This document shows, piece by piece, positions 1-1,556 of a stretch of DNA of 1,849 nt. Numbering within the stretch: position 1 is the stretch's first letter; the number at the start of each line of letters is the position of its first letter. Origin of the DNA: Escherichia coli (GTDB lineage Bacteria; Pseudomonadota; Gammaproteobacteria; Enterobacterales; Enterobacteriaceae); assembly GCF_003334305.1 (NCBI RefSeq), contig NZ_QOWS01000057.1, one strand, 5' to 3'. The translations under genes were made by a program, and so were the position numbers. Below the pieces are notes generated by a model. That model made no database searches and had not been told where the DNA came from. It saw only the letters and a program-made list of their open reading frames with translations.

Positions 1-1095
1 ACCCAACAGACAAGAATCCAGACGGTATACCAGCCGGGAAGCTTCACGCCGCTCCTGAGAATCGAAACAGAGAATGGTGAACAGGCGAAGGCGCGGCACC
101 GTAGCCTGGCGGAGGTGTTGCAGGAGGACACGGGTGTGACGCTACCGGCGGAGCTGGCGGTGATGCTGGGGAGGCTGGAGCGGGAACTGCGGCAGGGCAG
201 CGTGAGTGAAGAAAGCCAGCAGTGGCTTGCGCAGTGCGGGCTGACGGCGGAACAGATGGCCGCGCAACTGGAGGCGGAATACATCCCGGAGAGGAAACTT
301 CATCTTTACCACTGTGACCACCGTGGGCTGCCGCTGGCGCTTATCAGCCCGGAAGGGGAAACGGCGTGGCAGGGGGAGTATGACGAGTGGGGAAACCTGC
401 TGGGCGAGGAAAGCGCGCAGCACCTTCAGCAGTCACTCCGTCTGCCGGGACAGCAGTATGATGAGGAGTCGGGGCTGTACTACAACCGCAACCGGTACTA
501 TGATCCATTGCAGGGGAGATATATCACCCAGGACCCGATAGGGCTGAGAGGTGAATGGAATCTGTATAAATATCCATTAAACCCTGTTCGGTTTATAGAT
601 TCTTTGGGTTTAAAATTCCATGTTAACGGTGATCCAAGTGATTTTAATCAGGCTGTTGAGTATTTAAAACAAGATTCACAAATGAAAGAAACTATAGATT
701 TTTTATCAAGCTCTGAAGAAACTATAAATATAGAGTATATTGAAGGAACCAATGTTAGATTTAATTCGAATAATATGGCGATATATTGGAATAGTAGAGC
801 ATCTTTATTTTGTTCAACTGAATTAAACTCGAAATCACAATCGCCTGCATTAGGTTTGGGACATGAGTTTGCTCATGCGCAGTATTACCTTCTTGATAAG
901 GAAAATTTCATGGCTCTTTTAAGCCGAACAGATAAGAAATATGAGAATAAAGAAGAGGCAAGGGTTATTACAATAATTGAATCGCGTGCGGCGAAAACTT
1001 TAGGTGAGTGTACCAGAGGAGCTCATAGTGGACTGCCTTTTTATCGGGTGGATGGACCGTTGCAGACGATGAAAATAACGGGTACGCCAGAATAG
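1..1095 (+). CDS. Rhs-family polymorphic toxin, 3' portion (5' end lies outside the window): conserved core C-terminus plus variable C-terminal toxin domain
   Basis: Frame 1 is open from base 1 to the TAG at 1093-1095; the track ORF at 115 only reflects the first in-frame start codon. The translation ([27 protein letters not shown]...[16 protein letters not shown]...[35 protein letters not shown]) matches, from memory, the conserved C-terminal end of E. coli Rhs core proteins, including the PxxxxDPxGL hallmark. Sampled 60-nt stretches are about 70% GC before ~550 and about 25% GC after, the classic core/extension architecture. Confidence 0.9.
532..612 (+). other. Rhs core/CT demarcation: DPIGL-(x)17-DSLGL (DPxGL hallmark followed by a degenerate second copy)
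   Basis: Codons 532-546 encode DPIGL and 598-612 encode DSLGL, separated by [17 protein letters not shown]. This parallels the DPxGL-(x)n-DPxGL arrangement at the core/toxin junction of enterobacterial Rhs proteins. The nucleotide composition switches to AT-rich within this segment (~550). Confidence 0.8.
613..1092 (+). other. Variable Rhs C-terminal toxin domain (~160 aa), putative zincin-like metallopeptidase with HExxH motif
   Basis: The AT-rich region after the DPxGL junction encodes [11 protein letters not shown]...[52 protein letters not shown].... HEFAH lies at 862-876. Glutamates about 23-35 residues downstream ([14 protein letters not shown]) could supply a gluzincin-type third zinc ligand. 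The fold assignment is an inference. Confidence 0.45.
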
Positions 1096-1100
1096 TGAGG
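1096..1100 (+). promoter_or_regulatory. Shine-Dalgarno-like sequence (TGAGG) for the downstream immunity ORF, overlapping the rhs stop codon
   Basis: GAGG at 1097-1100 lies 6 nt upstream of the ATG at 1107. The rhs stop TAG (1093-1095) overlaps this region, suggesting translational coupling. Confidence 0.5.
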
Positions 1101-1106
1101 TTTTTT

Positions 1107-1556
1107 ATGATGAAATATTTGATGGTTTTATTGTCTCTATTTTCTGGTTCGGTACTGGGGATGGGGCGAGTGAATGAATTGTGTGGAATAGATAGCGTGA
1201 AAACGATAGAGATAATTAATCTTCCATCGTATGTTACCACGTTAGTTCCGCTTAGCAAGGAAGGTCTTAATGAAATATACAGATATAAAGTGGTGGTGAA
1301 TGAAATTAGCGATCTTTATGCTGGTAAGATAATTGATTTATTGCAAATGAAGTATTTCAGAAAAGAAAAATATAACAATATAAGATGGGGGGTTAGTATC
1401 ATTTCGAAAGGTAATAATAAATGTGAAATTTATTTTGATGCTTTTGGTGAATGTGGAAGTGTGAATGGCATTAACGTGTGTTTTGAAAAAAATGAAATGA
1501 TAGGTTGGATTAAAAAAGAAATCCCTTTGCTGTCGCAAAAAATAGGTGGGCTTTAA
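1107..1556 (+). CDS. Putative Rhs immunity protein (RhsI-type downstream ORF) with a signal-peptide-like or membrane-anchor N-terminus
   Basis: A 149-aa ORF (ATG 1107, stop TAA 1554-1556) lies immediately 3' of the rhs toxin CDS on the same strand and shares its low GC content. This position and size are typical of cognate immunity genes. The N-terminus MMKYLMVLLSLFSGSVLGMG has a short charged n-region and a ~15-residue hydrophobic core. The start is ambiguous: GTG 1095, ATG 1107 or ATG 1110. Confidence 0.7.
   Translation: MMKYLMVLLSLFSGSVLGMGRVNELCGIDSVKTIEIINLPSYVTTLVPLSKEGLNEIYRYKVVVNEISDLYAGKIIDLLQMKYFRKEKYNNIRWGVSIISKGNNKCEIYFDAFGECGSVNGINVCFEKNEMIGWIKKEIPLLSQKIGGL

Follow-up and report, generated by a model that had tools for sequence, protein, structure and literature searches.

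A predicted exported immunity protein, dsORF-h1, encoded next to a Peptidase_M91-like Rhs toxin in Escherichia coli

We analysed a stretch of 1,849 nucleotides (nt) of Escherichia coli DNA (contig NZ_QOWS01000057.1), called the window below. It is the 3' end of an Rhs element, in which the gene for the small protein dsORF-h1 lies directly behind a variable C-terminal toxin domain. The window was found at 100% identity in many E. coli chromosomes, and at least 80% of it was present in 1002 of 5426 complete genomes. The Prokaryotic Genome Annotation Pipeline (PGAP) annotates in it, in this order, the 3' end of an 'RHS element core protein' gene, the 'RHS element protein dsORF-h1' gene (WP_000978828.1) and the start of an ISAs1-family (H-rpt) transposase pseudogene. 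The Rhs reading frame extends from nt 1 to the stop codon TAG at 1093-1095, and the NCBIfam model RHS_core matched its core part with the last 25 model positions. Near nt 550, at the end of the Rhs core, the G+C content drops from about 0.6 to about 0.3. This drop at the DPxGL motif is the classic junction between an Rhs core and its extension. The following features were located.

1..546, plus strand: C-terminal end of the Rhs core (Pfam RHS, PF03527, E 1.4e-14; PGAP 'RHS element core protein')
517-546, plus strand: demarcation motif ending the Rhs core (DPIGL, DPxGL type), from the sequence
547..1095, plus strand (window residues ~183-364): variable Rhs C-terminal toxin, a putative Peptidase_M91-like zincin; AT-rich, assigned from a weak Pfam M91 match and homologs
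862-876, plus strand: HEFAH, the predicted HExxH zinc-binding motif of the toxin
952-957, plus strand: invariant EE, from the homolog alignment
979-981, plus strand: invariant E, from the homolog alignment
1097..1100, plus strand: Shine-Dalgarno sequence GAGG, 6 nt upstream of ATG 1107, read from the sequence
1107..1556 (stop included), plus strand: dsORF-h1, putative cognate immunity protein, 149-residue precursor (PGAP coding sequence WP_000978828.1)
1107..1166, plus strand: predicted Sec-type signal peptide, residues 1-18 or 1-20 (heuristic features, low model confidence, conserved character)
1167..1553, plus strand: mature alpha/beta domain with the family motifs EIINLP...T, IRWGV and IYFD.FG..G and four cysteines (C26, C106, C116, C125)
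1633..1675, plus strand: 43-nt copy of an rhs 5' end, encoding MSGKPAARQGDMTR (exact match to the start of the intact rhs of strain L65, locus L012, from 2833)
1817..1849, plus strand: start of the ISAs1-family (H-rpt) transposase gene, cut by the window end (PGAP; a pseudogene in the genomes checked)

A sequence-only reading of the window had described the open reading frame (ORF) at 1095-1556 as an immunity protein with a hydrophobic, Sec-like N-terminus and no lipobox, and had proposed that the toxin acts in the periplasm. The ORF is present on the plus strand, with a GTG at 1095 that overlaps the Rhs stop codon. The N-terminus quoted in that reading (MMKYLMVLLSLFSGSVLGMG) begins at the ATG at 1107, which is also the PGAP start, and n-, h- and c-region features were all found in it, confirming the description. 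A start at the alternative GTG would add only MRFF and still passes the signal rule, which here and throughout is a heuristic of our own and not a trained predictor. The gap of 11 nt between the toxin stop and dsORF-h1 suggests translational coupling.

The n-region (MMK) of dsORF-h1 has one positive charge (K3) and no acidic residue ahead of the h-region, and residues 4-20 make up a 17-residue uncharged run, the polar SGS included. Within the h-region (YLMVLLSLF...) the core LMVLLSLF has a best 8-residue Kyte-Doolittle mean of 2.9; its length is in the range of an h-region (about 7-15 residues) and below that of a transmembrane helix. The c-region reads SGSVLG/MG. Sites compatible with signal peptidase I by the (-3,-1) rule were found after G18 (VLG/MG) and after G20 (GMG/RV); a slash marks the cleavage site. 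The absence of a lipobox was likewise borne out for the E. coli protein, as the pattern [LVI][ASTVI][GAS]C occurs nowhere in dsORF-h1 and C26 is preceded by NEL; one relative in Salmonella does have a lipobox (VVGC).

Relatives of dsORF-h1 were collected with a profile of the mature part only, searched against 1.84 billion representative proteins (E<=0.001), so that the hydrophobic segment was unable to recruit hits. The 63 representatives found were mostly 140-170 residues long and had 20-50 residues ahead of the matched domain. These additional residues were signal peptides or lipoprotein signals with sequences unrelated to each other. Of the full-length representatives, 32 of 45 passed the signal rule; among the toxin homologs that served as a control it was 1 of 34. 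Among the 13 that failed, P0069 owed its failure to a miscalled start codon, since a clear signal peptide precedes it in frame, and three more had a hydrophobic N-terminus and failed on the charge criterion only. Close homologs of dsORF-h1 (77-89% identity) keep the hydrophobic segment, and over homologs of 35-88% identity the signal region varies in sequence but retains its character, with cleavage sites such as SYA/K, ARS/I, GKA/D and VQA/K. The export signal of dsORF-h1 is conserved and is not a product of chance. One member, P0017 (117 residues, ENA metagenome), has a C-terminal half identical to E. coli dsORF-h1 and a different N-terminal half without a signal, and looks like a recombinant or an assembly chimera.

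An AlphaFold2 model of dsORF-h1 built on a 49-sequence alignment reached a mean predicted local distance difference test score (pLDDT) of 90.2 and a predicted template modelling score (pTM) of 0.81; an earlier run with a 10-sequence alignment (pLDDT 48.6) was unusable. The model has a compact alpha/beta domain (21-140) with pLDDT 91-98, and low confidence is limited to residues 1-20 (pLDDT 63-64) and the C-terminal tail. Based on this difference, residues 1-20 are predicted to lie outside the fold. The four cysteines are conserved in the enterobacterial subgroup and not in distant members, and the model puts C116 on one strand and C125 on the other of a predicted hairpin (116-119, 122-126), which fits with possible disulfide bonds in an exported protein.

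dsORF-h1 belongs to an uncatalogued family. No Pfam family matched dsORF-h1 or 49 family members, NCBIfam gave nothing meaningful for dsORF-h1, a PDB sequence search with the immunity profile returned no related sequence, and Foldseek of the model against the PDB gave no significant match. In the AlphaFold database (AFDB) the fold matched DsORF-h1 entries, uncharacterised proteins and proteins annotated as lipoproteins, and nothing else. The RhsH element was reportedly named by Wang, Zhao and Hill in 1998, and a literature search on dsORF-h1, WP_000978828 and RhsH found nothing relevant.

Judged by its sequence, the toxin of the window is a distant Peptidase_M91-like zincin. Its match to Pfam Peptidase_M91 (PF14891) had E values of 0.013 and 0.0025 and covered model positions 64-123 of 176. 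Among 19 toxin homologs the same model reached E<=0.001 in 10 and E<=0.1 in all 19 (best 6.6e-09), and NCBI uses the name 'M91 family zinc metallopeptidase' for Hafnia homologs of 45% identity. The toxin family shares the invariant pattern EE.RVI..E..AAK.L and a second invariant motif. E116, E117 and E125 (numbering of the toxin profile A5) are invariant, giving HExxH a candidate acidic ligand downstream. DUF4157 was not hit by the window toxin or by any of the 19 homologs in Pfam, and PDB sequence searches with the toxin and with its profile, untrimmed and trimmed, returned Rhs-core matches or noise only and no metallopeptidase. NleD, which belongs to Peptidase_M91, is a type III secretion effector of enteropathogenic and enterohaemorrhagic E. 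coli that cleaves host JNK and p38 and has no immunity gene. NleD and the window toxin have the zincin HExxH core in common and the Pfam model covers the motif region; the toxin family of the window is a distant relative, and the window sequence itself scores weakly.

The same pair of families was found together in other genomes. In 8 of 8 polymorphic-toxin loci (Rhs- or YD-linked, or in an orphan array) the toxin homolog is directly followed by an immunity-family gene with an export signal, the small downstream gene thus varying together with the toxin type. The eight loci are the window, loci L002 (Hafnia), L003, L009, L011 and L016, and two pairs in Salmonella Senftenberg (L063), with toxins 35-55% identical to that of the window where measured. 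Those outside the window are as follows.

Hafnia alvei, L002: Rhs gene, toxin, then a 154-residue protein beginning MKLFLILIFFVSSQSYA/KN
Enterobacterial genome, L003/L004 (likely Salmonella, by AFDB match): orphan Rhs C-terminal toxin with HEIAH, then P0056, beginning MKRATVIVLIFLFIGKCNG
Metagenome contig, L009: YD-shell context, toxin with 37% identity; immunity protein MRIIAICLFLLLVPSARS/IEA, family hidden Markov model (HMM) E 6e-59
Metagenome contig, L011: toxin with ~39% identity; immunity protein MKTVFEIVVLLCVLVTLGKA/DEA, family HMM E 3e-25
Omnitrophica metagenome-assembled genome (MAG), L016: YD repeats; immunity protein MKKIITLSIIMFLSAVIVQA/KDN
Salmonella Senftenberg orphan array, L063 4014-5773: two toxin fragments (HELTH; degenerate HKIAH), each followed by an intact immunity-family gene

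One of the two L063 immunity genes encodes the lipoprotein with the VVGC lipobox and the other a protein with a signal of the signal peptidase I type. Just upstream of this array, at 3729-3950, lies a PAAR-like N-terminal fragment (VSGKPAARQNDMT). On contig L011 the toxin homolog (P0039, 2501-3160) has a Sec-like signal of its own (MRMLRRVFFIAIVAMFVTTQAQA), fused to what is left of an Rhs core, a short piece (YDP...RWIQRDPIG), and to the M91-like domain; the next gene is the signal-bearing immunity homolog.

The immunity gene was intact where the toxin was frameshifted (strain 13KWH46), truncated (strain 41) or mutated to HKIAH (Salmonella), and an intact immunity gene beside a degraded toxin is the pattern expected of a gene kept for protection. 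These homologous pairs lend computational support to the proposed immunity role. The proposed export is similarly supported by the predicted signals in all eight downstream genes and by the modelled fold, which leaves out residues 1-20.

In strain L65 the rhs gene is intact and encodes 1420 residues with the N-terminus MSGKPAARQGDMT, from which we assign a putative PAAR-like N-terminus and a full YD-repeat shell. A deliverable effector therefore exists. The gene lies at 5834-10095 in locus L001, at 2833-7095 in L012 (L65) and at 3624-7095 in L013. A frameshift disrupts rhs in 13KWH46 and strain 41 has a truncated copy, while WP_000978828.1 is identical in these two strains and L65. This degraded rhs next to an intact immunity gene suggests that many strains keep the protection alone.

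A scan of species-representative genomes detected 49 toxin homologs, of which about 45 were stand-alone proteins of ~150-165 residues in MAGs of Ca. Eremiobacterota (L015-L062), with neither Rhs nor signal peptide. About 40 of these had no adjacent immunity-family gene. Because signal-less homologs occur in this way, the M91-like enzyme appears to be tolerated in the cytoplasm. In L017, L025 and L032 a cytoplasmic peptidase/inhibitor pair is implied.

The arrangement in E. coli resembles known effector/immunity pairs of the T6SS (type VI secretion system). In periplasm-acting pairs such as Tse1/Tsi1, Tse3/Tsi3, Tae/Tai and Tle/Tli the immunity protein is located in the compartment of the toxin, and the toxin is harmless in the cytoplasm of the producer. 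They share this logic with the E. coli pair and differ in their enzymes (amidases, muramidases, lipases) and immunity folds. Closer in enzyme type are VgrG2b-Cter/PA0261 of the Pseudomonas aeruginosa H2-T6SS and Tpe1/Tpi1 of Acinetobacter baylyi, of the Tpe-Tpi family. There the T6SS delivers an HExxH zinc metallopeptidase, as is predicted here, and the small immunity gene that lies downstream encodes an export signal in both cases. Directed to the periplasm, VgrG2b-Cter is toxic to E. coli; protection by PA0261 requires both its signal peptide and DsbA, and relatives reach the envelope as soluble, lipoprotein or transmembrane-anchored forms (PMC6899460). Partly conserved cysteines have been reported for Tpe-Tpi as well (PMC6899460). 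The Tpe-Tpi immunity signals are, depending on the lineage, of the signal peptidase I type, lipoprotein signals or transmembrane helices, and the dsORF-h1 family shows the same diversity of targeting; dsORF-h1 itself carries a predicted envelope-targeting signal, as is characteristic of Tpe-Tpi immunity proteins. The toxins differ, being of the DUF4157 type and either fused to VgrG or PAAR or carried as cargo in Tpe-Tpi, and M91-like and fused to Rhs in the window. The E. coli pair would work like Tpe-Tpi but, judged by its toxin, which has no DUF4157 match, is not a member.

An Rhs-M91 combination has already been reported in Salmonella. In Salmonella Dublin the PAAR-Rhs-Peptidase_M91 effector SED_RS06335 of Salmonella pathogenicity island 19 (SPI-19) and its immunity protein SED_RS06340 play a part in competition between bacteria (PMC8867033). 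Competition assays identify the two as an effector/immunity module. The effector was classed as envelope-directed by its authors, as a prediction with no substrate shown (PMC8867033, PMC12288458). It shares with the E. coli pair the PAAR-Rhs scaffold, the M91-annotated HExxH domain at the C-terminus and, in one bicistron, a small downstream gene whose product has a hydrophobic N-terminus. The two immunity proteins are likened by description: SED_RS06340 has 110 residues and '1 TM' (one transmembrane segment), whereas dsORF-h1 has 149 residues and a signal of the signal peptidase I type. The 3' end of the Salmonella toxin gene, read from a primer of its authors, is unlike that of the window toxin.

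A preprint on Shiga toxin-producing E. coli (STEC) O22:H8 describes an 'Rhs-Peptidase M91' gene, Ec154_02824, which has an M91 C-terminal domain and a premature stop and lies 3' of VgrG and another Rhs, together with the hypothetical gene Ec154_02823 (bioRxiv 10.1101/2024.03.05.583533). By this description it is probably, indeed very probably, the same element as that of the window. In the preprint the downstream protein is without similarity, a signal peptide is unmentioned and activity in the prey cytoplasm is speculated (bioRxiv 10.1101/2024.03.05.583533), whereas the evidence for the window pair points to the periplasm. The sequence-only reading was sound in this respect and slightly ahead of the literature on the element; the periplasmic action that it proposed is made plausible by the VgrG2b-Cter/PA0261 precedent and by the stand-alone homologs.

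Taken as a whole, we consider it rather likely (probability about 0.7) that dsORF-h1 is an exported immunity protein that blocks an envelope-acting M91-like Rhs toxin. dsORF-h1 would be synthesised as a precursor whose Sec-type signal peptide (signal peptidase I) directs it to the periplasm and is cut off, probably after G18 or G20. Its mature alpha/beta domain (~130 residues) would there bind and block the Peptidase_M91-like zinc metallopeptidase, which would reach the cell from its sisters as the tip of a type VI effector of the PAAR-Rhs kind. As the protection is placed in the periplasm, the lethal substrate of the toxin most likely lies in the cell envelope, and may be envelope proteins or lipoproteins, or peptidoglycan peptides. 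The cytoplasm of the producer itself would not be at risk.

Several observations weigh against this reading. The window toxin itself matches Pfam M91 only weakly, and R21, close to both predicted cleavage sites, is not ideal for Sec export. The signal rule was also passed by 5.3% of composition-preserving shuffles of dsORF-h1, which is rather hydrophobic; for that reason the signal of this single sequence is suggestive, and its conservation is the stronger evidence. About nine family representatives are apparently truly signal-less, and L017, L025 and L032 in Eremiobacterota pair a signal-less immunity homolog with a signal-less stand-alone toxin homolog. Export is accordingly no defining trait of the family, which is better described as a peptidase inhibitor located where the peptidase is, with export tracking the polymorphic-toxin context. 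Distant immunity homologs often have no adjacent toxin (contexts L005, L006 and L008), and such distant members cannot be assumed to be immunity genes. Finally, the rhs gene is frameshifted or truncated in several genomes (see also bioRxiv 10.1101/2024.03.05.583533), and in many strains the immunity function alone may be live.

Of the other explanations, an uncleaved signal anchor would tether the protein to the inner membrane and place its domain in the periplasm, which is the same compartment with another topology. The varied envelope routes of relatives speak for it: one in Salmonella is a lipoprotein, the immunity protein of the Salmonella Dublin M91 effector is reported to have one transmembrane segment, and Tpi1 sits in the inner membrane. 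However, the uncharged run is short at 17 residues, and LMVLLSLF followed by SGS and small residues at -3 and -1 suits a cleavable signal, as do the classic cleavage sites of the homologs (SYA/K, ARS/I, VQA/K), so we regard an anchor as unlikely. It is more improbable still that the immunity protein is exported and merely intercepts the toxin in transit, the lethal target being the inner membrane or the cytoplasm. The delivery route of the T6SS does cross the periplasm, beyond which the substrate may lie, but signal-less stand-alone homologs without an immunity gene are common, which argues against toxicity in the cytoplasm, and in known T6SS pairs the immunity protein is located where the toxin acts (PMC6899460).

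We think it very unlikely that dsORF-h1 has no immunity function at all, either as an unrelated exported protein or with an M91-like toxin that hits eukaryotic proteins, as NleD does, and makes immunity needless. Peptidase_M91 is indeed defined by the host-directed NleD and distant dsORF-h1 family members often stand alone, but the tight pairing of toxin and downstream gene is kept across phyla, the downstream gene outlasts frameshift, truncation and the HKIAH mutation of the toxin, and the related Salmonella pair acts as an effector/immunity module. A hydrophobic N-terminus that arose by chance or from a wrong start codon, on a cytoplasmic protein, is hardly credible. It could draw on the 5% of shuffles that pass the rule and on the signal-less family members, but the Shine-Dalgarno site and the PGAP start both put the hydrophobic segment at the N-terminus, a signal was found in all eight polymorphic-toxin loci and in most of the family, and the fold begins after the segment.

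If the preferred reading of an exported immunity protein and an envelope-acting toxin is true, this widespread Rhs element of E. coli arms the cell with a protease aimed at the envelope and not with the usual nuclease or ADP-ribosyltransferase, and the published guess of action in the prey cytoplasm is corrected. The pair would offer a defined, testable system for finding envelope targets of M91-like peptidases, and adding the uncatalogued immunity family to domain databases would improve the annotation of orphan immunity genes. The gain in concept is incremental, because it is already textbook knowledge that an immunity protein in the periplasm marks a T6SS toxin that acts there.

The neighbours of the Eremiobacterota stand-alone homologs may give a lead to the substrate. 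The same-strand gene just downstream was like a DgcA N-acetyl-D-Glu racemase or an L-Ala-D/L-Glu-epimerase in 11 loci (NCBIfam E 9.8e-62) and DgcN-like in 8 loci (E 3.8e-68), and a peptide ABC-transporter binding lipoprotein was encoded beside the homolog in 4 loci. These neighbours may link the peptidase family to the catabolism of D-Glu or murein peptides. This lead is weakened by the fact that all loci come from one phylum, in which the gene order is perhaps merely inherited. A tentative and rather doubtful extension would make the M91-like Rhs toxin a hydrolase of the peptidoglycan stem peptide (D-Glu-containing), recruited from a cytoplasmic peptide-recycling enzyme. dsORF-h1 would then found an undescribed family of peptidase inhibitors, with exported and cytoplasmic versions and without a Pfam entry or a solved relative of known function. 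By analogy with the model proposed for VgrG2b, the release of lipoproteins is an equally open alternative.

Regarding the surroundings of the pair, the element adjoins pptA/yddH/nhoA, with a second Rhs element upstream of it; strain 41 instead has the remnant of a Vgr gene in that upstream place. The 43-nt copy of the rhs 5' end sits between the immunity gene and the transposase start (1817) and marks the edge of the element, where it looks like a remnant of recombination or of an insertion junction. A scan of 1000-1849 for promoters and terminators gave matches no more frequent than in shuffles, and therefore no separate promoter is claimed for the immunity gene. ORFs on the opposite strand at 968-1258 and 1338-1568 were taken as shadows of the AT-rich coding region. 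In locus L012 two small genes precede the intact rhs (1840-2752), one for a hypothetical protein of 150 residues whose N-terminus is hydrophobic, the other for a 'DUF3969 family protein'. A 1.67-kb contig in a 'Collinsella sp.' MAG (L014, JAIJJM010000683.1) carries a toxin domain 100% identical to that of the window followed by the same dsORF-h1 N-terminus, and is almost certainly E. coli contamination of that bin.

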